Source: Candidatus Obscuribacterales bacterium (GTDB lineage: Bacteria; Cyanobacteriota; Vampirovibrionia; Obscuribacterales; Obscuribacteraceae). From it: 39,561 nucleotides of DNA. Within the stretch, counting starts at the first letter, position 1; each line of letters opens with the position of its first letter. A program made the position numbers and the translations under genes. The notes below the pieces were generated by a model, which worked only from the letters and a program-made list of their open reading frames with translations, was not told the DNA's origin and did no database searches. The stretch is taken from the NCBI GenBank assembly GCA_036703705.1, contig DATNRC010000349.1:1-39561 (forward strand), written 5' to 3'. Positions 1,797 to 38,519 of this stretch are shown piece after piece.

Positions 1797-3975
1797 AGTT
1801 CAATTCGCCCAATAGATTTTTGTAACCGCTTGCCGGAATCCAGGTGGCGATATCTTCGCCCACGATTGGCTCCGGCTCGCCTGTATACGGTTGATCGTGG
1901 AATCCGGCGTCAGGCGGATTGTCGCCTTCTATGCCTGCTTTGACATTGACAATGTAGCCCGATATCGGGAATGTTTTGCTAGCCGTTCTTACCAGAGACG
2001 ATTTCCGGCCGTCGGGCTCGATTTTTACACTGAGCATCCATTTGCGGTCTGCCCACTTCGATTGCGTTTTCAGCTCGCCTTCCGAAACGATGACCAGATG
2101 TCCCGGCGTATCGCAAAACAGATATTGAGTCTCGCCCAGCCAGATCTTGCTGCTTTTCAAAACTGTTTCCAATTGCGCGGCGGTGATGTTGCGATCGATT
2201 TCTCGGCAGCGTTGCAAGAGACCCTTGAAGTGTTCCTCGCAGCCGCCGACTTGCTCCATCAACTCCCATGGTGTTCCCAATCTTGCAAAATTGCAGTATG
2301 GGAATTCGGCAGTAATTGGATACGCTTGTTCGTAATTGAACAGTTTCATGCCTGAGCTTCCAACGCCGGCGCCGTTGATTGAAAAACACTTCACGCCCCT
2401 TCCTCGTTTTGCCAGGAGATCCGCCTTCAGGTACTCCGCCAGGCAAAATCCTTCCGATGGGTTCGAGCTCGATGGTCCGACGAGGCCGTTTCTTCTGTAG
2501 TTATTCGCCCACTTCGAGAGATTCAGATCATCCACGCATGGACCTTCGAGTGCGTCATCATACATGGTGCTCGTGCACACGGCATCCACTCCGGATATCT
2601 CCATCAATTGCGCGAGCGTCGCATCCCTGTTAGGCGTCGAGCCGTAGCGGAATATATTGAGCGCCCATTTCTTTCGCGGATCTTTGTTTGGATCGCGCCC
2701 GCCATAATTGCTGTCGCCCATTCTGGTGCTTGAGGGATATTGACCTCTGGTGGCGTTGTAGTCGGCCCAGGCTTCGATGGCGCCACCGGGAGCGGTTGTG
2801 CAGGCAAATACAGTGCTGTCCGGATCCATCGGATCAAGCGGCTTGGACACCTCGATCTGGTTTGGCGTGTAGAGCTCATTATTGAACAAGTCGTTGCTGC
2901 CATCGACGGTGACTTCGTCAACGCTCGATCCGTATCTGCCTTTTCCATTGACGATTCTTATGAAACCTTGCGGAATCTGTGCGGAGAATTCTTGATCCAC
3001 AGCCGCACTCAAGGCGCAGCTGCGAGCATGCAGCACGAAGCCGCTGTCGCTGTCCCTGCCTGTTCCGATGCCGCTGAAAGCGTTTGGTGGTGTTGCATTG
3101 TTTTCGTCAGGATTTGTTCCGCTCTTGAATTCGTTGTAATTGATGAGGTGCGGTCTGGCTCCCGGGAAAAGCGGAACGCCCATAACAGCATGGTTTTTCT
3201 TTGCGTCGGTGACGGCTATCGGTACATATCCAGCCAGGAACGGCATGCCGGTCGTCGCTGACTTGCTGCTGCTGAGAACTGAGCTGTCAGAAATGGCTGC
3301 TGATGGAAGGATGGATGGATCGATATAAACGTTGGTGGAACTGCCGGGTCTGAGATATGCGCATTCCAGGGAGTTGAGGCGTTGAACTTTCGTCTTCACG
3401 CCCAGCATCTTCGGCAGGTTTGCGGAAGCCATTTCATCGAACGCCGGATCGAGACCGCCCTTGGTGAGTTCTTCGTTGAGCGCCTTGCCGATACGTGAAG
3501 CATGCAGACAAACCATATTGGCGTGCTTTTCCGCTTCATTGACGCCCAATTCTCTGGCATTTGCCGTCACCAGATAGGCTTGAGCAACAACACGGTTGTA
3601 TGTGAGCAAATCGATTTTGTCGGCAGAGATTCTTCCCAATCCAATGAAGTATTTCGTGTCTTGCACGCCTTGAATGGGGAGGGTCACTGAAAAGCCATTG
3701 AGGGAGTATTTGGCGGCGTTCAACACTGCGGAGTCGGTGATATTGTCGAGCTCGCGACTGCCGCCCATAATGCGTGCAGCAAAGAAGAAGCAAATGCCGA
3801 GCAGCATGATCACCAGCGCGACGATTGCCACAATTCCGGTCATCGCTCCTCGTGTGTTGCGCTGGCGAGCGGTTTCCGTTGCAGTTTCCGTAGAATTGCA
3901 GAATTTGCGCGCTGATATCGACTTGCGAGCAGTTTCCGTTGCGGTTTCCATATATATAGGATCGGGATTGAACAT
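1750..3975 (-). CDS. large membrane-anchored protein with TadE/TadG-like N-terminal segment
   Basis: 741-aa ORF. RGAMTGIVAIVALVIMLLGICFFFAARIMGGSRELDNITDSAVLNAA resembles the TadE/G-like anchor signature (RG, hydrophobic helix, L..A.D.A.LAA). The rest has no domain I recognise. Duplicated TETATETAR peptide at the N-terminus. Start uncertain (ATG 3975, 3951 or 3843). Confidence 0.75.
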   Translation of the reverse strand: MFNPDPIYMETATETARKSISARKFCNSTETATETARQRNTRGAMTGIVAIVALVIMLLGICFFFAARIMGGSRELDNITDSAVLNAAKYSLNGFSVTLPIQGVQDTKYFIGLGRISADKIDLLTYNRVVAQAYLVTANARELGVNEAEKHANMVCLHASRIGKALNEELTKGGLDPAFDEMASANLPKMLGVKTKVQRLNSLECAYLRPGSSTNVYIDPSILPSAAISDSSVLSSSKSATTGMPFLAGYVPIAVTDAKKNHAVMGVPLFPGARPHLINYNEFKSGTNPDENNATPPNAFSGIGTGRDSDSGFVLHARSCALSAAVDQEFSAQIPQGFIRIVNGKGRYGSSVDEVTVDGSNDLFNNELYTPNQIEVSKPLDPMDPDSTVFACTTAPGGAIEAWADYNATRGQYPSSTRMGDSNYGGRDPNKDPRKKWALNIFRYGSTPNRDATLAQLMEISGVDAVCTSTMYDDALEGPCVDDLNLSKWANNYRRNGLVGPSSSNPSEGFCLAEYLKADLLAKRGRGVKCFSINGAGVGSSGMKLFNYEQAYPITAEFPYCNFARLGTPWELMEQVGGCEEHFKGLLQRCREIDRNITAAQLETVLKSSKIWLGETQYLFCDTPGHLVIVSEGELKTQSKWADRKWMLSVKIEPDGRKSSLVRTASKTFPISGYIVNVKAGIEGDNPPDAGFHDQPYTGEPEPIVGEDIATWIPASGYKNLLGELNFEERASGGGRYSSPN

Positions 3976-4225
3976 TGGTTTTTCGAAGGAAAATTGGGAT
4001 GCAAAATCCGAGCGCAGGGCGCCTCTTTCGCGATATGCAAATGCGCGGCGAACCGCCCGCCAACCTTGTGGGCTTACTCTAGAAGGGACTGGTAAATGTT
4101 TGAGGTTATTTCAGTTTATGCCTATGCAACAGGGAAGTAAATACGCGATTTTCACTAAATTGGGGGATTCAATTGTGAAACCTTCATTAACGAGTGGAGC
4201 GCTCCCAGAGTGGAAAACCACATCT

Positions 4226-4243
4226 GCAGGCTCTTTTGCCTGC
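4226..4243 (-). terminator. candidate intrinsic terminator of glpK
   Basis: Immediately after the TAA stop on the minus strand: GCAGGC-AAAAGA-GCCUGC (6-bp stem), followed by a weak U-rich stretch (AGAUGUGGUUUUCC). Confidence 0.35.
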
Positions 4244-5740
4244 TTAATCTTCGATCTGTCCGTTTTTGTCGGCGCAGGCAAACGCGCCCTTCAAGGCCTT
4301 TTGCCAGCCGGCATAATCTTCCTGCCGGCTTTCCTGGGGCGAAATTTTTACGTCCGATGACCACTGCTGGGCGATTTCGTCCAGGCTTTCGAATATCCCC
4401 GCCTTGAGCCCGGACAGAGCGGCCACTCCCCAGGCGGTTGCCTCCACCTGCGAGGCACGTAAAACAGGCACGCCCAGTATGTCCGCCTGGAATTGGAGCA
4501 GGAATCCATTATTGGTGGCACCGCCGTCGACACGCAATTCAGACATGTCGGCCCCGTGGCTGTGCATGTCCTCCGACACGTCACGAATTTGGTACGCCAT
4601 CGACTCCAGCGCGGCGCGGGCCAGATGGGCGCGACCGCTGCCACGCGTGAGCCCGACGATGGTTCCCCGCACATCCGAGTTCCACCACGGCGATCCCAGT
4701 CCGACCAGAGCAGGAACAAAGTAAACCCCCTCGTTTGACTGCAGCGATTTTGCCATTGCCTCGGTTTCGCTGCTGGATTCGATGATTCCCAGGCCGTCGC
4801 GCAGCCACTGCACTGCCGCCCCGGCAATGAAAATAGCGCCTTCGAATGCGTAGGTGACTGGCTGGTCTTCGAGCTTCCAGGCGACTGTCGTTAACAGACC
4901 CCTTGCCTCGCGCTTTTCATGACCTATATTGGCGAGGAGAAAACTGCCCGTTCCGTAGGTGCACTTCGCCATGCCGGTTTCAAAACAACATTGCCCGAAC
5001 AAAGCCGCTTGCTGGTCTCCCATTACGCTCAAAATCGGTGCGGATAAACCAACAAGATCTTCACGCGTGGTTCCGAAATTAGCATCAGATGCCACCACAG
5101 CCGGCATCATAGAGCGGGGAACGTACATCAGCTTCAACAGCTCATCATCCCAGTCGAGTGTTTCTATGTTGAAAAGCATAGTGCGGGAAGCGTTGCTCGG
5201 CTCGGTGAGGTGATTCTTTTCTTTGGTCAAGCTCCAGACGAGCCAGGTGTCGATGGTTCCGAATGCCAATTTGCCGGCGTCTGCAAGATCACGGGCGTTG
5301 CGCACATTGTCGAGAATCCAACGAATCTTGGGACCGGAAAAATAGGCGTCGGGAACCAGCCCGGTTTTGTGGCGGATAACATCAAGGTGCGTGGATTTCA
5401 ACTCCTCCGCCATGTCTTGCGTGCGCCTGCACTGCCAGACGATTGCCGGATAGAGGGGCTTGCCTGTTTCGCGGTCCCAGACAACTGTTGTTTCACGCTG
5501 GTTGGTGATGCCTACGGCAGCGATTTCGTCAGCCTCTACTCCCGCATTCTTAACTGCCTCCTTCACGCATTGCACCTGGACGCGAACGATTTCCAGGGGG
5601 TCATGCTCCACCCAACCCGGCTTGGGAAAGTTTTGCGTGAACTCCTTCTGCCCCAGCCCGACAACCTTACCGTTCTTGTCAAAAACAATTGCGCGACAAC
5701 TCGTTGTGCCCTGATCGATGCTCACCATGTAGCGCTTCAT
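4244..5740 (-). CDS. glpK: glycerol kinase
   Basis: 498 aa, full length. MVSIDQGTTSCRAIVFD (FGGY kinase N-terminal motif), PGWVEHDP, GVPVLRASQVEATAWGVA. Typical GlpK throughout. Confidence 0.97.
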   Translation of the reverse strand: MKRYMVSIDQGTTSCRAIVFDKNGKVVGLGQKEFTQNFPKPGWVEHDPLEIVRVQVQCVKEAVKNAGVEADEIAAVGITNQRETTVVWDRETGKPLYPAIVWQCRRTQDMAEELKSTHLDVIRHKTGLVPDAYFSGPKIRWILDNVRNARDLADAGKLAFGTIDTWLVWSLTKEKNHLTEPSNASRTMLFNIETLDWDDELLKLMYVPRSMMPAVVASDANFGTTREDLVGLSAPILSVMGDQQAALFGQCCFETGMAKCTYGTGSFLLANIGHEKREARGLLTTVAWKLEDQPVTYAFEGAIFIAGAAVQWLRDGLGIIESSSETEAMAKSLQSNEGVYFVPALVGLGSPWWNSDVRGTIVGLTRGSGRAHLARAALESMAYQIRDVSEDMHSHGADMSELRVDGGATNNGFLLQFQADILGVPVLRASQVEATAWGVAALSGLKAGIFESLDEIAQQWSSDVKISPQESRQEDYAGWQKALKGAFACADKNGQIED

Positions 5741-5879
5741 AACTGTTAAACCCCTTTCAATGGTTAAGCTGGTTTGTGGCGTAGTGGGACTGGCTTTCCG
5801 GTTTTCGAACGGGGATCATAGCGGAATTTCCGCCAATTTGAATTAGAATAGAAATGGTCGTGAGAATAGGGGATTGCTT

Positions 5880-6185
5880 ATGTCTATTACTTCCGACGAA
5901 CCTATCAGTTTTTGTTGTGCAGTGTGCGGCAAACCAGTAAGTGCTCCTCTTGTGCCTCTACCCGACGTCGGCGGCAGCAAGGGACACAGTTGTTTGGGCT
6001 GCGGGCACACGGTGTGTTCGCAACATTTCAGCAAATCCCGCAACCGCTGCGTGCGTTGTACGGCGGGCAGAGATGATTGGTGTTCTACTCCCAAGCTGCC
6101 CGAAGTGCCGAAGCTTCCGGAGCCAAAATTGCCGAAAATTCCCCAGCCGAAACTGCCGAGGCTTCCGAAACTGCCTCCGCTGTGA
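5880..6185 (+). CDS. small zinc-ribbon-like protein with C-terminal (P)KLP repeats
   Basis: ATG 5880 preceded by AGGGGA. Cys pairs CAVCG, CLGCG and CVRC, then PKLPEVPKLPEPKLPKIPQPKLPRLPKLPPL. An equally long antisense ORF (5843-6286) exists, so the strand call is tentative. Confidence 0.5.
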   Translation: MSITSDEPISFCCAVCGKPVSAPLVPLPDVGGSKGHSCLGCGHTVCSQHFSKSRNRCVRCTAGRDDWCSTPKLPEVPKLPEPKLPKIPQPKLPRLPKLPPL

Positions 6186-6323
6186 GTTGCGATTCGCGGG
6201 TTGGCACCATATGCAGTGGCGGACGATCGTGCCAAGCACAATTGAGGCGCCGGATTGCTCTTGCCTGTGTGGCGGATGATGTGCACTTGGATGCAGACAC
6301 TAGTGCAGCCATGCCTGCGTCCT

Positions 6324-6427
6324 ATTTGGTGATGCGGCGGTCTGAGCGGGATGCGCTCGTCTCGATTTGGTGATGCGGCGGTCTGAGTGGGATGCGCTCG
6401 TCTCGATTTGGTGATGCGGCGGTCTAG
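6324..6427. repeat. 41-nt intergenic tandem repeat, about 2.5 copies
   Basis: atttggtgatgcggcggtctgag[c/t]gggatgcgctcgtctcg starts at 6324, 6365 and 6406 (last copy partial). Confidence 0.9.
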
Positions 6428-6461
6428 GATAACGATGCGCGCAGATGGCTGTGCTCGCTTC

Positions 6462-6824
6462 CTACGGAGCTTGCATCCAGAGGCAATGTGCGGGCGCCAT
6501 TAAGAGGGGACCAGCATTGACGCTTAATCGATTGTTGGCCGGAGTGTTTATGGTTTCGAAGTCGAATATCTCCACCGCCGCGGGCAGTTTCTTGTCCAGA
6601 TCTTCGTCTCTAATTGCGTTGACTTTCACAAACTTGCTGAGGTCTTCCTTGCTTGGCTGTGGCAACGGCGCGAACACTTTGTCGAGCAATTTGCCGATCT
6701 CTTGATTGTCCCTTGCATCAAGCTCCAGAGGCTGCTCCTTCTCGGCGACCTTGTCCGACTCGAGAAATCCAACGCCTGACGCCAGGTTCGCCAGATGGTT
6801 TGAAAGCTCCATAAGCGTGAACAT
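6462..6824 (-). CDS. hypothetical acidic protein
   Basis: 120-aa ORF. ATG 6824 with GGAG about 9 nt upstream. No recognisable domain. Confidence 0.6.
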   Translation of the reverse strand: MFTLMELSNHLANLASGVGFLESDKVAEKEQPLELDARDNQEIGKLLDKVFAPLPQPSKEDLSKFVKVNAIRDEDLDKKLPAAVEIFDFETINTPANNRLSVNAGPLLMAPAHCLWMQAP

Positions 6825-6879
6825 TTAAGCAACTCCTATACCCATGGCTGACATAGCAGCCGTTTCAACCGCGATAAGG

Positions 6880-7270
6880 ACTCAACGGACACCGGCCAGC
6901 TATTAGAGGAAGATGTGCCAGAGTTAAGCTGCGGTTTACATGACGTAACAATAGCGCCAAAGACCCACCAGCGGGCGCTTGTATTGGCGCGTTGGGGCGC
7001 CTCTCCGGGAAAGACAGCCGGCGAGATCGGCTTCCGCCCGTTATTAGTGGACAGTTTTGGCGCCGGTCCGATGGCGCACAGCTGACGCGATCGGTGTCCA
7101 TCCGTTATTAGTCGACAATTTCGGCATCGCTCCGGGGGAGCACAGCTAGCGAGATCGGCTTCCGCCCATTATGAGTCGACAATTTGGGCGCCACTCTGGC
7201 GGAGGGAGAGCCAGCAAGATCGGCTTCCGCTCAGCCAATCGACAAAGTTCTGTGGTGCCCCGAGGAAGGA
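6880..7270. repeat. degenerate ~64-bp tandem array (4 clear plus about 2 decayed units)
   Basis: The GATCGG anchor recurs at 7025, 7089, 7153 and 7218 (period 64, 64, 65). Units share gatcggcttccgccc-ttattagt[c/g]gacaatttgggcgcc. Weaker copies are visible near 6900 (ctattagagga) and 6975. The overlapping ORF 6865-7101 looks spurious. Confidence 0.85.
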
Positions 7271-8074: not shown

Positions 8075-8162
8075 GCCGAAGTGGCGAAATGGCAGACGCA
8101 GCTGACTCAAAATCAGCCGGGGCTTAAACCCCGTGTCGGTTCGACTCCGACCTTCGGCACCA
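8075..8162 (+). tRNA. tRNA-Leu (anticodon CAA), CCA encoded
   Basis: Acceptor GCCGAAG/CTTCGGC. Anticodon stem-loop GCTGA-CTCAAAA-TCAGC. Long variable arm CGGGG-CTTAAA-CCCCG. T arm GTCGG-TTCGACT-CCGAC. Discriminator A plus CCA. Confidence 0.95.
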
Positions 8163-26620: not shown

Positions 26621-27718
26621 ATGAGCCTGTCGACGATTGCGGTGTTATTCAGCGGCGACAATTCTGCAGTGGCCGTCTACTTGCTGCTGATATTGGCGTG
26701 TTTGGTTGCCGTTTTCCTGATATTGAGGAATAGGCCGCAAGATGCGCGCCGCTACCTCTTTGCTGAGGTGATATATGGAACCGTAGCTGGAGCATTGCCT
26801 TTTGCGCTTGCGCACGACTTCTTCGAAATCATTCAATTGCTTGCGTACGGGTGCTTCCTGGGTGGAGTAGCCTTTCTCATCATTTGCGGCTGCCTGGCAC
26901 GGAAGAAGCTCAAAATGATGGCAAGCATGTTTTTTGCCATCGCATGGGTGGTCTCTGTGGTTGGCATTGATGCATTTCTTCTGGAGCCTACAGCCCTCGA
27001 ACTAACTCATTTCACCATCAAGAATGACAAACTGTCCAAGCCCTTGAAAATCGCTGTTGCGGCGGACTTGCAAACGGACAATATTGGCGCCTACGAGCGA
27101 GGCGCCCTAAAGAAGATCATGGATGAAAAACCAGACCTGATTCTTCTTGCCGGGGACTATCTGCAAGTCTGGTCATATGATGAACTGAACGACCAAACCA
27201 AGAAGCTGAAGCAAGCATTGAAGGACACCGGATTTGGTGCGCCATTGGGCGTATATGCGGTTATGGGAAACGTTGAAGATGCATCATGGCCGACGCTTTT
27301 CAGTGATCTGAAAGGTAAATGCTTCGAGAAGACCGAGTCGATTGCTGTAGGCGAAGTTACGCTCACCGGACTTGGATTCAACGATTCTTTTAACGATCAG
27401 CTCAAGATTGCGCCCAGTCGGAGAATGCATATTGTGTTTGGACATGGTCCGGATTTCAGCCTGAGCAGGTTCGACGCCGATCTTTTGATTGCCGGGCACA
27501 CTCATGGTGGACAAGTGCAAATACCAGGAATAGGACCGATTTTTACCTTTTCAAAGGTGCCAAGGGCATGGGCCCAAGGCGGCCTTATCCAAATGGATGA
27601 TGGACGTACGCTCATTATCTCCAGGGGCATCGGATTGGAAAGGCACCATGCTCCACGGCTGCGCTTTCTCTGTCGTCCTCAGATCGTAATTGTTGATGTA
27701 CTGCCTGACAAGAAATGA
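26621..27718 (+). CDS. membrane-anchored metallophosphoesterase
   Basis: N-terminal TM helices, then calcineurin-like motifs: KIAVAADLQTD, LAGDY, MGNVED, GHTHGGQ. Confidence 0.9.
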   Translation: MSLSTIAVLFSGDNSAVAVYLLLILACLVAVFLILRNRPQDARRYLFAEVIYGTVAGALPFALAHDFFEIIQLLAYGCFLGGVAFLIICGCLARKKLKMMASMFFAIAWVVSVVGIDAFLLEPTALELTHFTIKNDKLSKPLKIAVAADLQTDNIGAYERGALKKIMDEKPDLILLAGDYLQVWSYDELNDQTKKLKQALKDTGFGAPLGVYAVMGNVEDASWPTLFSDLKGKCFEKTESIAVGEVTLTGLGFNDSFNDQLKIAPSRRMHIVFGHGPDFSLSRFDADLLIAGHTHGGQVQIPGIGPIFTFSKVPRAWAQGGLIQMDDGRTLIISRGIGLERHHAPRLRFLCRPQIVIVDVLPDKK

Positions 27719-27719
27719 T

Positions 27720-28265
27720 TCAGCTCGACAATCGGCGCGCGAGAATTGCATAAGTCAGCCCGTTCCATTCAAACTCATCGACAGCCTTCATGCCCACCTT
27801 CTTGTGTGCCGCGAGCGATCTGCTGTTGACCTGAGATACGAGAGTCGCGGCCAGCCTGTAGCCTTTCGGAACAAGGTCGGGCAGATAGGCGTACAGTTTT
27901 TCGAAAATCCCCTGTCCTCTGCTTGGAGCTGCAATACAGACCGGTCCGCAAATACAGACAATACTTGTGTCAATCGTGCTGCCTTCAAATTGGACCTACT
28001 TCAATTTCTCGACCATTGTTCCAGACAACGAAAAGCGGCGATTGAATTCAGCTGAGGTCACGCAGAGAAATCCAAGCACTGAGCCATTTCCAGCTGCCAC
28101 AATGGTGCCAATGTCCTTATCGATCTCTTCCAGCTGCTCTGCGTTGAAGTAAGCTGATAGAAAACCGTCTTGCTTTTGCTCGGCTGTCAAATTGGAAGAC
28201 AGATTTTCAATTTCCAGAGTAACTATTTTCTCGAAATCACTCTCAGTCGCTCTTCGTATAATCAT
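27720..28265 (-). pseudogene. GNAT family N-acetyltransferase interrupted by one in-frame TAG (27995..27993)
   Basis: ORF 27996-28265 ends ..SGTMVEKLK-TAG. The same frame continues VQFEGSTIDTSIVCICGPVCIAAPSRGQGIFEKLYAYLPDLVPKGYRLAATLVSQVNSRSLAAHKKVGMKAVDEFEWNGLTYAILARRLSS to TGA at 27720. The R/Q-x-x-G-x-G/A acetyl-CoA motif (SRGQGI) lies after the stop. Confidence 0.75.
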
Positions 28266-28328
28266 GCAGATTGAAAACTGTTTTGTTTCGATGTGTCCAA
28301 TATCAGTAACAATACCATGACCATGGTG

Positions 28329-28370
28329 AATGCCAATGCCAATGCCAATGGGAATGCCGATGCCAATGCG
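28329..28370. repeat. imperfect hexanucleotide array (AATGCC)7
   Basis: AATGCC AATGCC AATGCC AATGGG AATGCC GATGCC AATGCG, lying 64-105 nt upstream of the GNAT start. Confidence 0.9.
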
Positions 28371-28528
28371 ACCAGAACTCGCTCAGGCTGAGTATCGAAT
28401 TAAGCCGAGAGGTGAGAATTGTGACCCGGGCAGGAACTCTTGTTGGCAGTTGCACGTCTTTCCGCAGCCGGAGGGAAGCCTCTGACCACCTGGCAGCAAC
28501 ATTGAAAAGCGGCGTGCACGGGGAGGTA

Positions 28529-28744
28529 ATGTTGATGAATTGGGACTGGCAGCCGATACCAGACGTCATTTCATACGATGCTTTGCTTAACGAGCTGAGA
28601 CGCCGGCCGAATGTTCGTTCTTCGGATGACGAGCAAGCTTATCTCTTTGAGCTGATTTATGACCTGATGCTTTTGGATAAGCGAGTAAAGACTCAGGCCG
28701 TAAATTCGTACTGGGTCAACAATACGAGCTACGACACCGAGTGA
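28529..28744 (+). CDS. small hypothetical protein (71 aa), convergent with the retron RT
   Basis: ATG 28529 preceded by GGGGAGG at optimal spacing. MLMNWDWQPIPDVISYDALLNELRRRPNVRSSDDEQAYLFELIYDLMLLDKRVKTQAVNSYWVNNTSYDTE. The upstream part of track ORF 28412-28744 is R/S-rich and unlikely to be coding. Confidence 0.5.
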   Translation: MLMNWDWQPIPDVISYDALLNELRRRPNVRSSDDEQAYLFELIYDLMLLDKRVKTQAVNSYWVNNTSYDTE

Positions 28745-28762
28745 GCGGCACACCGATGCACT

Positions 28763-29734
28763 CTATTGCCAAGCTTCCTGCAGCTTCGCGAGCATTGCTT
28801 TGTATTTGGGAAGCGATGGATCGTCAGGCCGCACCATCTCTAGGAAGGAGATCTGACCCTGGAGTTGTTGTGCTTTGTCTCGATACTGCTCAGGTTCTAG
28901 TGAGGCTCGGTGCAGAGCCGCCCGCAAATTACGGCGGCGTGTCCGAGACAGATTGGGGAATTGGTTTACTACCAGACCCGTGACCATTTGCCTGCCGAGT
29001 TTTGTTACCAGTCGCACTTTGCGATTGTTGAGCCTGAAACCTTCGCTTTCGATGATAGATGTGATCTTAGCTTTGACTTCCTTGTGGCTGCCATATCCCG
29101 AAACCGAAATGTCATCACAATATCTGGTGCAGGTCCAGCCGCTCGACGCGCACAAATTGTGGAGCTTGTGATCGAGCGGGCGGCAAATGAGATTTGCCAG
29201 CAGCGGTGAGCTAGGCGCTCCCTGAGGCAAGGTGCCCCTGCACGTTGTGAGCCTGGACAAGGCTTTGGCGATAGCTGGACTGTAGCCCAATCCAATGAAG
29301 ACGTTTAGGACTCGCGCTTCGTCAATGGTGCCGAAAAAGTTTTCGATATCGACATTGAGAACGAAATCTTTGTTCGCGTGCGGAGACGCATTGTCAACGA
29401 TCGAACAGCCGCGTTTGTAACCTGTGGCAATGAAATGAAACGGCACCGCACTCAAAATGTTTTTGGAGATCCAGCGTTGCACAGCTTTCAAATTCTTATT
29501 TGGCGCTGTGATCAAACGGGAGCCGCCGCTTTTCTTTTGCAGGAAAAATCGTCTGTAAAAACGCTCTGTATGAAGTGCATAACGCCAGAGCTCAATTTCG
29601 GGAATGCCAGTCTCTAAAGCTAATTCGCCCAGGCTGTTGAAAGGCAAGTCGTTTACTCCTCGGAGCGGCATTTCTGCCATTGAACCAATCAAAGAGAGCG
29701 GAATTGCAGACGTGCTGCAGGGCAGCACATGCAA
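28763..29734 (-). CDS. ret: retron-type reverse transcriptase
   Basis: KKSGGSRLITAP, GCSIVDNASPHANKDFVLNVDIENFF (NAxxH), LPQGAPSSPLLANLICRPLD, TRYCDDISVSG (YxDD), RQMVTGLVVN (VTG). About 320 aa with no maturase or endonuclease domains. TTG 29734 has GGAG 7 nt upstream. Alternative ATG starts at 29680 and 29671. Confidence 0.9.
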   Translation of the reverse strand: MHVLPCSTSAIPLSLIGSMAEMPLRGVNDLPFNSLGELALETGIPEIELWRYALHTERFYRRFFLQKKSGGSRLITAPNKNLKAVQRWISKNILSAVPFHFIATGYKRGCSIVDNASPHANKDFVLNVDIENFFGTIDEARVLNVFIGLGYSPAIAKALSRLTTCRGTLPQGAPSSPLLANLICRPLDHKLHNLCASSGWTCTRYCDDISVSGYGSHKEVKAKITSIIESEGFRLNNRKVRLVTKLGRQMVTGLVVNQFPNLSRTRRRNLRAALHRASLEPEQYRDKAQQLQGQISFLEMVRPDDPSLPKYKAMLAKLQEAWQ

Positions 29735-29903
29735 ATCCGGGCTCCAGGTGAAACCTTGAATTAGGATTGACGAAGCATCAATCTAAACCGCGCAAGCGGT
29801 CCAGAAATGCCACCTACCCGAGTAGTGAGCTGCATCTCCTATGAGCAGCTGAAGGCACATTTAAAAGCACGCGGAAGTGAAAGTCAATCGATTTTGCATG
29901 CCT
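29725..29903 (-). ncRNA. candidate retron msr-msd non-coding RNA
   Basis: Inverted-repeat arms at 29890-29901 and 29727-29737 (CATGCAAA/TTTGCATG perfect, ~11 bp with one bulge and a G-U), 152 nt apart. They enclose four hairpins: 29828-29850, 29811-29827, 29785-29802 and 29765-29783. Lies directly 5' of the RT on the same strand. Confidence 0.45.
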
Positions 29904-29962
29904 TAGAGAAATATTGGACACTGGCTATCCATCAGCTATCCCGTGGAGGCAAACCATATCTG

Positions 29963-32191
29963 CTATGTATTGCGTCTTGTAAGCAGCGCATGCAAATCAT
30001 GTTTGTTGACCAGTATGTCTTTCCAGAGATCGCCTCTTTGGGCCAGTCTTTGCGGCATAACGGATAGCGTAAGATCGGACGGTCGTATATTCGATAGCTC
30101 ATTCCATGAGAGCGGGGCAGAAACCGGCGCACCAGGAAATGCACGAGGAGTATATACAGCTGCCATTGTCTTACCCGTGCCGTTGGATGAGCAGTCGACA
30201 TATACTTTGCCTGCGCGTCTGGATATATCGAACTCTATGGTTGCTTTGTCTGGATGATGTCCTGTGATTAGTTGCGCCGTCGTTTGCGCAAGGGTGCGCG
30301 TTGTGAGGAAGTCCACCTCTCGATCGCGCTTGACGGGAACAAAGATATGCAATCCGTTTCGTCCGGAAGTCTTCAAATACGATTGCAATCCAGCAGCCGC
30401 CAGACTCTCTCTGAGGATGGACGCCACGTCGCACACCCTCTTAAAGGCATCCATGTCAATAACATCAGGAACTTTCTTGCCCGACTGCGGGTGATAGTCG
30501 AGATCCACTATTAAGAAGTCCGGGAGGTCCAACATCCCTTCGACGTCGTCGATGGTGCCGGCGGGAGGATCGGGATATTCTGCCAGGCGCGATGAACAAA
30601 CGTGAAACTCGAGCACGCTGTGCTGAGCGAGAAACATAAGAGTAGCAAGGTTGTTGCACAGCAAATATTCACTGCGCGCCTCGCCGCTCTCTATGATTTG
30701 TGTCTCCACAAAATCTGGCAGTGCTGCATTCCAATTCTTCTGGAAGAAACTTTTACCCTTTATTCCGTCAGGATATCGGATGACCGTCAGCGGGCGACCG
30801 TACCAGTGTGGTAGCAAATATGGTGCAATCTTGCATAGATGACGCAGATAATCTCTTTTTGTAAGGGCTGGAAATTCTTCGGTTTCGGGCCAAAATTCTT
30901 TATCCAGGTGAGAAAGAGGGATCTGCTCATTTTCGACGAATAACTCCAGCTTCTTCTCATTGCCGCTCAGCTGCCCGATCACCTTTTCATAAACGCTCGC
31001 ACCATCTCCTTCTAATCTGTCCTGAGGACGATCGAGTCCGGAGGTATTTCGTGTTGGGATGGGGGTGGCGTCACGGCTGCTGCTCTCGGCTACCCGAGAC
31101 ACCGTTTCTGGTGCTGCAGCGTATGTGGTGCCACTGATAAGGGCTTTCTGCGAATCAGGATGCAATACTTCGGCGGGTTCTTTGTCCTCGCGAAAGCGCA
31201 TAAAAACTGGAGTACGAAGATGGCCGTCTTTTGTGAGGTCCATGTATTTGACTTCGACTATCACTTCCGGTTTTACCCAAATTACATCCTTCTTGTCTTC
31301 CGGGCGCGATACGAACGGACAAGCCTTTGTCTTGAGAGGCTCAATCTTGTTGAGCGTTTCCTTTAAGAGTCGCTGGTCAAATCCGGTTCCTACACTGCCG
31401 CAATAGACCATGCGGCCCGCTGTGTCGTTGTAGCCGAGCAAAAGCGAACCGAACGTCGAGTTTCGCGAGCCCTGACCGAGCGTATAGCCGCCGATGATAA
31501 ACTCTGCAGTTTGCTGGGCTTTCACTTTCAGCCATGACGGTGAGCGCTTTCCACACTCATACATGGAATCGACCCGTTTAGCGACAATGCCCTCGAAGCC
31601 GTTGTCGACACATACTTCGTAGGCAAGCGCAGGGTCAACGTCGAAGAAGGAAAGCAAACGAACCGTTTCCGACGGAATGATTGCTTGCTCCAGCACTTTC
31701 TTGCGCTCAAGAAGCCGGACATTGGTTAGATCAAAACCATCGAAATATGCGACATCAAACACATAGTATTGAACGGGTACCAGTTTGTCGGCGCGCGCAA
31801 TGTCAGCTTGCTTTGTCAGATTCATGCGTTGCTGCAACTGCTGAAATGACGGCCGTCCCTGGGCATCAACAGCGATTATTTCGCCATCCAAAACGGCATC
31901 ACATTTGACGAGTCGGGAAAGTTCGCTGGCAATAGAAGGATATTGGGAAGTCAGGTTCAATGCCCTGCGCGACAACAATGAGACTGTGCCGTCACGTATA
32001 ACTGCAATGCAACGAATGCCATCGAGTTTCGGCTCGAAAACCCATCCTGCGTGCCGGATTGTTCCCCGTGGGAGACTTGCCAGCATGGGACTGACAGTTT
32101 TTGGAGGCGGTCTGCGGTGAGCACCACCGACGGTGCCCAATTCCAATCGTTGTTCTCTTGTTTTGCCGCGGGTTGCTCGCCCTTTAGCCAA
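29963..32191 (-). CDS. ligD: ATP-dependent DNA ligase LigD (ligase + primase-polymerase domains)
   Basis: Adenylation motif FEPKLDGIRC, DGEIIAVD. OB region FIIGGYT..FGSLLLGY. C-terminal Pol block RYPDGIKGKSFFQKN, LIVDLDY, SGRNGLHIFVPV, VYVDCSSNG. No phosphoesterase domain evident. Confidence 0.95.
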   Translation of the reverse strand: MAKGRATRGKTREQRLELGTVGGAHRRPPPKTVSPMLASLPRGTIRHAGWVFEPKLDGIRCIAVIRDGTVSLLSRRALNLTSQYPSIASELSRLVKCDAVLDGEIIAVDAQGRPSFQQLQQRMNLTKQADIARADKLVPVQYYVFDVAYFDGFDLTNVRLLERKKVLEQAIIPSETVRLLSFFDVDPALAYEVCVDNGFEGIVAKRVDSMYECGKRSPSWLKVKAQQTAEFIIGGYTLGQGSRNSTFGSLLLGYNDTAGRMVYCGSVGTGFDQRLLKETLNKIEPLKTKACPFVSRPEDKKDVIWVKPEVIVEVKYMDLTKDGHLRTPVFMRFREDKEPAEVLHPDSQKALISGTTYAAAPETVSRVAESSSRDATPIPTRNTSGLDRPQDRLEGDGASVYEKVIGQLSGNEKKLELFVENEQIPLSHLDKEFWPETEEFPALTKRDYLRHLCKIAPYLLPHWYGRPLTVIRYPDGIKGKSFFQKNWNAALPDFVETQIIESGEARSEYLLCNNLATLMFLAQHSVLEFHVCSSRLAEYPDPPAGTIDDVEGMLDLPDFLIVDLDYHPQSGKKVPDVIDMDAFKRVCDVASILRESLAAAGLQSYLKTSGRNGLHIFVPVKRDREVDFLTTRTLAQTTAQLITGHHPDKATIEFDISRRAGKVYVDCSSNGTGKTMAAVYTPRAFPGAPVSAPLSWNELSNIRPSDLTLSVMPQRLAQRGDLWKDILVNKHDLHALLTRRNT

Positions 32192-32199
32192 CTGTCAGC

Positions 32200-33048
32200 T
32201 CACCCCACTGCGGCTTTCTTCTTGCCTTTTGACGCTGGGGCGGTTGCAGCCGACTCTCTCGTCTTTTCTCTGGATTTTTTTGCTTTTACGTTTTCCATGC
32301 TTGCCTGCAATGCTTCCATCAAATCGATCACCTTGCCCGTCTGAATTGGGGGAGCCTCGGCAATTTCCCGTCCTTCCAGCTTGGCCTCGATTATTTTCAG
32401 AACTGCCTCGCGATAGTTATCAGTATAATCGCTCGGCTGGAATTCTTGCGTCATCAAGTCAATCAGGCTGCCGGCCATGGCTAATTCTTTGTCTGTGATG
32501 TTGACGTCGGGAAGCGCTTTTCTCTTCTCCACGCGTATTTCATCCGGGTAGAAGAGCGTGCTCATCATCAAGGTGCCATCAAGAGGACGCAAGGCGCACA
32601 GGCGTTCTTTGCTGCGAATGGCGACCTTGGCAATTGCCGTCATTCCTTTGTCCTGCAAAGCGCGCATAAAAAGCGCGAAGGGCTTTCGGGCTGCCTCATC
32701 AGGCTCGATGAAATAACTCTTTTCATAGAAAACAGGATCAATCTCAGACTGCTGTATGAAGCTGGTTATCTCGATGCAATCTTTGTTTGGCAATGGGAGC
32801 TTTTCCAGGTCATCCTTGCTCACAATCACATACTGCCCTTTGGCGTATTCATAACCCTTCTCAATTTCCTCGCTCTCAATCTTTCGATCGCAAACGGGAC
32901 ACGTTTTGATCTCCTTGATGCGGCTCTTGCAGTCCTTGTGAAGCTGGTTGAAAGAGATATCTTTATTCTCAGTAGCTGTGTACAGCTTTACTGGAATGCT
33001 GACCATTCCAAACGTGATGATGCCTGTCCAAATTGCTCGCGGTGCCAT
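32200..33048 (-). CDS. ku: Ku protein (NHEJ DNA end-binding)
   Basis: Start moved to ATG 33048 (GGAGGAG SD). MAPRAIWTGIITFGMVSIPVKLYTA is the typical bacterial Ku N-terminus. Basic C-terminal tail. 8 nt upstream of ligD. Confidence 0.95.
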   Translation of the reverse strand: MAPRAIWTGIITFGMVSIPVKLYTATENKDISFNQLHKDCKSRIKEIKTCPVCDRKIESEEIEKGYEYAKGQYVIVSKDDLEKLPLPNKDCIEITSFIQQSEIDPVFYEKSYFIEPDEAARKPFALFMRALQDKGMTAIAKVAIRSKERLCALRPLDGTLMMSTLFYPDEIRVEKRKALPDVNITDKELAMAGSLIDLMTQEFQPSDYTDNYREAVLKIIEAKLEGREIAEAPPIQTGKVIDLMEALQASMENVKAKKSREKTRESAATAPASKGKKKAAVG

Positions 33049-37996: not shown

Positions 37997-38122
37997 GCGA
38001 ATATCCGGGGCTGGAGGGCGATTCGGGAAACTGATATAATTGGAAGTTGAGCTGTTTTTGTGTTGCAAGACAGCATGTGAAACCTGAAAATTGCACATCG
38101 TTTTGAGCCTGGTCCCTTACAT

Positions 38123-38519
38123 GGGGGCGTTTAGATTCGACAGGGTTGTTGGGTCGCAGGCTGCAGGTCGAGGTCGCTTGGATCCTCGTAAAAAGCTGAG
38201 CAAAAAAACAAACGCCAATAACGTAATTAGCGTTGACTTCACCGCAAAGCGCGCTCTGCGCGCTGCCTAGTCTAGCTTAGGCTGCGGTACTCGCTAGATT
38301 CCTGACTACCCGAAACTAGTGGGTCAACCAAGGTAGTTGCAACCGGGCAAAGTTAGCGGTTGATAGCCCGGTCTAAGAAATAACCGCGACCCCGGGTGGC
38401 AGTTCAGGCCATCTCCAGCGGGTCGTGCAAACGACAACTGGAGGAATGCTGAACTAAACTTGTAGATGCTTGTCTCTCGACTTCTTTGGACGCGAGTGCG
38501 ATTCTCGCCGCCTCCACCA
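38123..38519 (+). ncRNA. ssrA: tmRNA (SsrA), one-piece
   Basis: 5' GGGGGCGUUUAGAUUCGACAGGG. 3' GGACGCGAGUGCGAUUCUCGCCGCCUCCACCA. Acceptor GGGGGCG/CGCCUCC has G3-U. Tag ORF GCC AAT AAC...GCT GCC TAG (38214-38270) encodes ANNVISVDFTAKRALRAA. Confidence 0.93.

Follow-up and report, generated by a model that had tools for sequence, protein, structure and literature searches.

A probable St85/Ec86-like retron following Ku and LigD genes in the Obscuribacteraceae hints at a link to DNA repair

The 39,561-nt contig DATNRC010000349.1 of a Candidatus Obscuribacterales bacterium (assembly GCA_036703705.1; the whole contig is hereafter called the window) carries a minus-strand reverse transcriptase (RT) gene, which is preceded by a structured noncoding RNA (ncRNA) and, upstream of this, by genes for the end-joining proteins LigD and Ku. 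We conclude, with a probability of roughly 0.85, that this element is a genuine and selectively maintained retron of the St85/Ec86-like lineage, that it is without a classical effector, and that it is the third member of a Ku/LigD/retron cassette conserved in the Obscuribacteraceae, in which LigD has no phosphoesterase domain. Every retron feature that can be tested in sequence was found: the RT motifs, the family score, the YxDD box, and an upstream RNA closed by paired a1 and a2 arms. Current understanding treats retrons as three-part abortive-infection systems, with a toxin held in check by the RT and its multicopy single-stranded DNA (msDNA); in the lineage described here, an intact RT and a covarying RNA have persisted, without a toxin, through divergence at the family level and remain attached to a dedicated Ku–LigD pair.

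The reverse transcriptase

The RT gene was first listed as a 323-aa open reading frame (ORF; 28763–29734, minus strand), which is also the length given in the first-pass annotation of this DNA. Judging from the sequence, this ORF is over-extended: its leading 29 codons overlap the msd and a2 segments of the ncRNA, and the true start is the TTG at 29647 behind GAGGAG, which gives the 294-aa product reported by the gene caller and held in the protein collection. At 294–323 aa, the protein has RVT_1 as its sole domain (Pfam, 1.3e-20), and Pfam finds no maturase, endonuclease, or other extra domain, as had been proposed. The four protein motifs quoted earlier are all present, namely SIVDNASPHANKDFVLNVDIENFF (the NAxxH block), LPQGAPSSPLLANLICRPLD, YCDD, and RQMVTGLVVN. 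Regions X (NAxxH, here NASPH) and Y (VTG), which are by definition specific to retron RTs (PMC7736814), both occur and both align with the motifs of the Ec86 RT; the catalytic YxDD box reads YCDD, and its columns are invariant in 24 homologues. The best match among solved structures is the Ec86 RT (7v9u, E 3.2e-47, residues 4–270), and NAxxH, LPQGAPSSP, and VTG coincide in this alignment; the Ec86 counterpart reads LPQGAPSSPKLANLICSKLD, and the likeness to Ec86 noted in the first-pass annotation is correct.

The curated families agree with the reading of the gene as an Ec86-like retron RT. It passes NF038233 (retron_St85_RT) with 246 bits against a cut-off of 235, and its top PADLOC models are all retron RTs, with RT_XIII (2.6e-84, 282 bits in two pieces), RT_II-A (5.6e-79, 264 bits over the full length), and RT_III-A (6.5e-78, 260 bits) scoring closely. 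The generic RVT_1 domain, standing alone, could also fit an RT from a group II intron, a diversity-generating retroelement, or an Abi/UG/DRT system; however, we assign such an origin a negligible probability. The models for these RTs score far under their cut-offs (57 against 300 bits for the group II intron RT, 41 against 390 for Drt2, and 36 against 200 for Drt3a), the maturase and endonuclease domains are absent, an Rfam scan of 27500–30500 with E values up to 10 gave no intron or other RNA family, and a retron-type RNA lies upstream.

Homologues of the RT are at most 54–56% identical, come mainly from Candidatus Obscuribacterales, and carry the retron St85 name in the database. Ratios of nonsynonymous to synonymous substitution rates (dN/dS) for RTs of the cassette are 0.10 (L014/L017), 0.22 (L014/L015), and 0.03 (L019/L021, where dS is saturated), which indicates that the cassette RT is under purifying selection. 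The window's own genome has a single RT of this family and a single copy of the RNA; no second RT copy, second ncRNA copy, or genomic target of the msd was found in it.

The noncoding RNA

The ncRNA spans about 29819–29660 on the minus strand, directly upstream of the RT gene, and a conserved structured RNA occupies the same position in orthologous loci, in keeping with the msr-msd region that the first-pass annotation placed there. The fold shown by covariation comprises an a1/a2 duplex, two msr hairpins, and one msd stem-loop (Table 1). The core of the duplex is a 10-nt perfect inverted repeat (29802–29811/29667–29676; I2), which extends to 13 bp with G-U pairs. Across loci, 9–16 nt ahead of an invariant UCUG are complementary to a segment starting with CAGA just before the RT start, and the sequences themselves vary: GGUGGCAUUUCUG and CAGAAAUGCCGCU are the a1 and a2 arms in the window, UGGAUAUCUCUG and CAGAGAUAUCCA those in L016, and AGAAGAGUACGUUCUG and CAGAACGUACUCUUCU those in L005. 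The blocks common to 12 LigD–RT intergenic regions are TTGAC followed after ~17 nt by TTAAAT or TAGATA, then UCUG-G-ACCGC-loop-GCGGU, and GGUUGAUGnUUCGUCAACC.

In a MAFFT alignment of 12 related loci (A2), 93.9% of pair cells are paired, compared with 31–52% when the partners are slid by 1–3 columns; compensatory changes on both sides are present at 10 of the 26 pairs, and none of 500 shuffles reaches the observed values. The a1/a2 helix is 90.8% paired in A2, with compensatory changes at seven of its 10 pairs. A covariance model built from A2 (R1) gave 31 matches in 962 kb: one ahead of the RT in every intact locus of the lineage, plus relic copies, and nothing elsewhere; the alignment of these 31 matches is 95.5% paired. 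The window RNA (29819–29660) folds at −71.3 kcal/mol (z −5.8), and the DNA complement of the msd is predicted to form a hairpin of −18.5 kcal/mol (z −3.7). The orthologous msds form one main hairpin each, with z from −4.2 to +0.2; in some orthologues, shuffled sequences are as stable as the msd stem, a point against the proposed retron.

The first-pass annotation had drawn the RNA differently, with a1 at 29890–29901, a2 at 29727–29737, G29889 as the branch point, and a series of short hairpins as an atypical msd, a geometry that we consider very improbable. An 8-bp perfect inverted repeat does exist there (29728–29735/29893–29900; I5), but its length is no better than chance: a 401-nt stretch contains nine inverted repeats of at least 7 nt, I2 and I5 among them, and about 1.2 perfect 8-mers are expected per 400-nt stretch by our own estimate. 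The 5′ arm sits between the TTCTCTAAG box and the −35-like TTGACT, and therefore upstream of the likely transcription start, and the 3′ arm coincides with the 5′ side of the msd stem. In 11 orthologous loci this pairing is missing and the matching segment finds only 4–6 complementary nt in the msd, whereas the alternative arms (29814–29802/29676–29664) covary strongly. An msr-msd region upstream of the RT was thus correctly anticipated, but with the wrong arms. With the arms corrected, the candidate branching G is G29801, next to the true a1, and the msd is an ordinary single stem-loop. The proposed array of four short hairpins does not survive this correction, although two of the hairpins drawn earlier find a place in the new fold: the one with the UUGC loop (29800–29787) is msr hairpin 1, and the 7-bp hairpin (29712–29728) is the tip of the msd stem.

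Transcription probably begins at the conserved TTGACT-17-TTAAAT block, although a promoter/terminator consensus scanner called nothing at the retron. The RNA folds through the a1/a2 duplex, the msr hairpins, and the msd stem-loop, with the RT translated from the TTG at 29647, just past a2. By homology with Ec86, the RT would bind the msr hairpins, prime on the 2′-OH of G29801, and copy the msd from 29677 toward 29764, to give an msDNA of at most ~88 nt with a 21-bp imperfect hairpin.

Table 1. Features of the retron and its neighbours in the window
Feature	Position	Strand	Description
Retron RT gene	28763–29647	−	294 aa, TTG start at 29647, stop codon included; NAxxH, LPQGAPSSP, YCDD, VTG
Shine-Dalgarno GAGGAG	29656–29661	−	8 nt ahead of the TTG start; read from the sequence
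a2 arm CAGAAAUGCCGCU	29664–29676	−	3′ end of the msd RNA, pairs with a1; inverted-repeat scan, arm search, covariation, fold
msd template region	29677–29764	−	88 nt; RNA fold with an imperfect 21-bp stem-loop, 29745–29693
msr hairpin 2, GAUUGAUG-CUU-CGUCAAUC	29765–29783	−	Near-invariant in 31 loci; compensatory G-C to A-U and U-A to C-G changes
msr hairpin 1, ACCGC-UUGC-GCGGU	29787–29800	−	Stem invariant and loop variable in 31 loci
Candidate branching G	29801	−	First base past the a1 stem, part of the conserved block UCUGGAC; conservation in A2 90% or more; candidate by position and conservation
a1 arm GGUGGCAUUUCUG	29802–29814	−	Arm search and covariation; 7/10 pairs changed on both sides among 12 loci
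Promoter-like block	29859–29887	−	TTGACT (29887–29882), 17 nt, TTAAAT (29864–29859); same spacing in other cassette loci; putative promoter
TTCTCTAAG box	29902–29910	−	~15 nt upstream of the −35-like element; in most cassette loci; single occurrence in the window
LigD paralogue A (LigD-A)	29963–32191	−	ATP-dependent ligase and primase-polymerase; Pfam DNA_ligase_A_M, DNA_ligase_A_C, LigD_Prim-Pol
Ku paralogue A (Ku-A)	32200–33048	−	282 aa, ATG at 33048 behind GGAGGAG; Pfam Ku 2.8e-53
71-aa ORF convergent on the RT stop	28529–28744	+	No homologue in a 5.8-billion-protein collection
GNAT-like acetyltransferase gene	27717–28265	−	Single in-frame TAG at 27993–27995; otherwise open over 182 codons

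The Ku/LigD/retron cassette

We surveyed 107 genomes of the order, all of one family and all metagenome-assembled (the window's own is 87% complete), and counted as Ku-A any Ku at least 61% identical to that of the window. Ku-A is present in 26 of the 107 genomes, and 16 of these have an RT 3.3–5 kb downstream on the same strand. In one further genome (G067) the RNA is cut by the contig end; in another (G044) an intact RNA accompanies a fragmented RT pseudogene, frameshifted and truncated; four (G042, G049, G048, and G045) retain a weak RNA relic of 28–36 bits with the RT deleted; and four, of which three have LigD-A, show no retron trace. In the four weak relics, the promoter-like block, a1/a2, and hairpin 1 can still be made out, and hairpin 2 is degraded. 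Relic sites following LigD-A lie at ~5252–5430 (L082), ~5442–5620 (L083), ~5353–5537 (L087), 4062–4245 (L091), and 3702–4292 (L086). Ku and LigD stand directly before the retron in 11 genome-contig loci, and the same cassette occurs in the two nearest metagenome relatives, where the outer neighbours differ (DnaK/DnaJ and DnaB versus FtsH and thioredoxin), and on one short JGI contig; with the family survey included, it is present in 16 Obscuribacteraceae genomes and three metagenome contigs.

The cassette keeps different company from locus to locus. Among 14 cassette loci, the outer flanks have a homologue in common in two of 91 pairs upstream and 10 of 91 downstream, compared with 54 of 66 and 35 of 55 pairs at control loci of a paralogous, B-type retron (see below); the B-type loci have diverged less than the A-type loci of the cassette, and the comparison is indicative rather than exact. 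RT and LigD are equally diverged, with mean pairwise identities of 52% and 50.5%, respectively (Pearson r 0.90). Among 80 genome-contig loci, those from outside the Obscuribacterales have neither Ku nor LigD, and LigD occurs at one of 80 metagenome loci, on a short contig; other orders of the class yielded no RT of the same clade. As far as gene order tells, Ku and LigD are the only conserved partners of the retron.

Ku-A passes TIGR02772 (304 against 150 bits), and LigD-A passes TIGR02776 (463 against 373 bits), with the ligase KxDG and polymerase DxD motifs visible in its sequence. Pfam finds no LigD_N (3′-phosphoesterase) domain in LigD-A, which is therefore not a three-domain LigD. The same genome has a second nonhomologous end-joining (NHEJ) locus (L088, contig C18, 4151–7994, minus strand) coding for Ku-B, 46% identical to the window Ku, and for a 941-aa phosphoesterase-ligase-polymerase (PE-Lig-Pol) enzyme, LigD-B; nowhere in the family survey, L088 included, does a retron follow Ku-B.

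A known retron effector, of the kind adjacent to the RT in the tripartite types I–XIII, has no PADLOC match among the neighbours, and the type II-A effector NDT_II-A was found neither in the locus nor in the whole genome (87% complete). Two neighbours were considered as effectors and rejected: a collection of 5.8 billion proteins contains no homologue of the convergent 71/110-aa ORF, the GNAT-like gene is interrupted by its in-frame TAG, and neither is conserved in other cassette loci. We saw no mobile-element signature around the cassette, with neither bounding repeats nor a GC shift.

Some loci have additional genes at the cassette borders. In L013 (G018), a 415-aa ORF with no PADLOC match lies between LigD and the retron (4229–5476), and the retron keeps its promoter-like block; in one metagenome relative, the DnaB gene adjoining the cassette (L089, 7990–10905, minus strand) carries an intein with a LAGLIDADG domain. 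A genus with Ku-A and LigD-A and no A-type retron (L085, 4007–13637, from G068) has a PD-T4-6-like Ser/Thr kinase after LigD, and an RT of a third retron-like class (~38% identical) 8.7 kb downstream; this class is found in many genomes of the family. The window itself also contains a transfer-messenger RNA gene (38014–38519, plus strand) with the tag ANNVISVDFTAKRALRAA, and a tRNA-Leu(CAA) gene (8075–8162, plus strand).

Possible roles and comparison with known systems

In the RT tree, the Ku–LigD-linked RTs, the B-type RTs, and those of L001 (Myxococcales), L023 (Melainabacteria), and L028 (Fimbriimonadia) fall into one clade (support 84/96). The B-type RTs are monophyletic (100/100), and the Ku–LigD-linked RTs form a deep unresolved grade within which the B-type and NDT-bearing clades also fall. 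In L001, L023, and L028, an NDT_II-A effector gene stands directly before the homologous RNA (1e-21 to 1e-32), and LigD in the cassette thus occupies the effector slot of the nearest classical relatives. These relatives share with the cassette the RT clade, homologous msr hairpins and a1/a2 (R1 matches L001 at 37 bits), and the order upstream gene–ncRNA–RT; they differ in that their upstream gene is NDT_II-A, whereas here it is LigD, preceded by Ku. The paralogous B-type retron has one fixed location, behind gcvPB and downstream of RNase D-like and GlcF-like genes, in ~22 Obscuribacteraceae genomes (L002, L003, L006–L012, L018, L020, and L022, around 5700–6900). A 700-aa P-loop NTPase (mad8 and nSTAND3-like matches) separates gcvPB from the RNA in eight genome-contig loci, and in four this slot is empty; several genomes carry A-type and B-type retrons together.

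A functional link of the retron to the Ku-A/LigD-A end-joining pair is plausible, and we put it forward tentatively: Ku-A and LigD-A, rather than a toxin, would be the partners with which the retron works. The msDNA hairpin, with its one open duplex end, might then serve as an end-mimic ligand of Ku-A/LigD-A, keeping the pair held or poised as long as the complex is not disturbed by phage DNA ends, a phage nuclease, or an anti-Ku protein; the msDNA might instead modulate end joining directly. Such a partnership would fit a cassette that stays intact amid unrelated flanks, as the B-type loci serve to calibrate, the position of LigD in the NDT effector slot, and the equal divergence of RT and LigD. 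It would also fit the nature of Ku-A/LigD-A as an extra, phosphoesterase-less pair, when the canonical Ku-B/LigD-B never occurs with a retron, and the selection acting on RT and RNA although there is no toxin.

Several observations weigh against a working cassette of this kind. The RT is lost or decayed in five of eight species of one genus with Ku–LigD intact, and the four genomes with Ku-A (three with LigD-A) that have no retron trace point the same way, as does an A-type retron (L024) in G041, a 95%-complete genome without Ku. B-type retrons persist without an adjacent candidate effector. The retron has a promoter-like block of its own. Finally, the association is confined to one bacterial family, for which shared descent is a possible explanation.

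We give about even odds to the view that the retron is an orphan neighbour of the end-joining genes. An ancestor would have gained it 3′ of ligD and passed on the adjacency, and the retron would act alone, or with a partner encoded elsewhere, while being lost in some lineages. The independent RT losses in which Ku–LigD is kept and the retron without Ku in G041 are readily accommodated, and the B-type retrons offer a parallel: they are stable behind gcvPB, and in four genome-contig loci no candidate effector adjoins them. Each genus has its own RT clade, consistent with vertical descent, and orphan retrons have already been described (PMC7736814). However, an inherited adjacency does not explain why the LigD–retron junction persisted when nearly every comparison shows both outer junctions replaced, nor what selective benefit an effector-less retron provides, and the genome (87% complete) shows no NDT or other known retron partner with which it might act.

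The cassette gives a hint that retrons and DNA repair are linked in a way not yet described. If Ku-A and LigD-A are indeed the working partners, this would be the first retron with a DNA end-joining machine, not a toxin, as its output, and the msDNA hairpin might regulate or guard Ku–LigD, for instance against anti-Ku proteins of phages or phage DNA ends. A functional link would join retrons to double-strand-break repair through a natural msDNA–NHEJ interface, with relevance for phage-defence biology and for retron-based genome editing. Without such a link, these loci would still illustrate clearly how orphan retrons can last for a long time at fixed chromosomal junctions, and the role of orphan retrons, a question left by Mestre et al. 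(PMC7736814), would become testable with a small, defined RNA and RT.

The RNA of Retron-Eco1 (Ec86, type II-A) runs through a1, the branching G, two msr hairpins, one msd stem-loop, a2, and the RT start, and the order here is the same. Ec86 (PDB 7v9u, 7xjg, 8qbk) is also the best structure match and shares NAxxH, LPQGAPSSP, and VTG; it differs in having YADD where the RT here has YCDD, and the identity is only ~35–40%. The msd stem here is shorter and imperfect, NDT is absent both next to the retron and genome-wide, and ku-ligD lies upstream. The RT may belong to a type II-A clade: its best structure match is type II-A Ec86 and it groups with NDT-bearing RTs, but the PADLOC scores for RT_XIII, RT_II-A, and RT_III-A lie close together. 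Retron Sen2 is a toxin–antitoxin pair with an NDT-like toxin, RcaT. The RT here passes the curated cut-off of the St85/Sen2 family (NF038233), but no RcaT-like toxin accompanies it.

Orphan retrons, which lack the associated proteins of types I–XIII, are known (Mestre et al. 2020, PMC7736814), and the element resembles them in having an RT and ncRNA without these proteins, which the host genome lacks as well; it differs in its conserved, specific neighbour pair and its long history at one junction. The word 'ligase' is absent from PMC7736814, where the short term 'Ku' is not searchable. Full-text literature searches found no natural association of a retron with LigD or NHEJ, which also counts against Ku-A and LigD-A as working partners.

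Retron Ec48 is reported to guard RecBCD (Millman et al. 2020). It is a conceptual precedent for a retron tied to DNA-end-processing machinery, although it has a membrane effector of its own and is not encoded next to recBCD, whereas the link here is genomic only. A two-domain Lig-Pol LigD is found in Bacillus subtilis, as YkoU. As in bacterial Ku–LigD NHEJ operons, both proteins of the cassette pass their families' cut-offs (TIGR02772 and TIGR02776); unlike those operons, this is a second, phosphoesterase-less pair beside a canonical PE-Lig-Pol enzyme, and a retron follows it in most of the genomes that have the pair.

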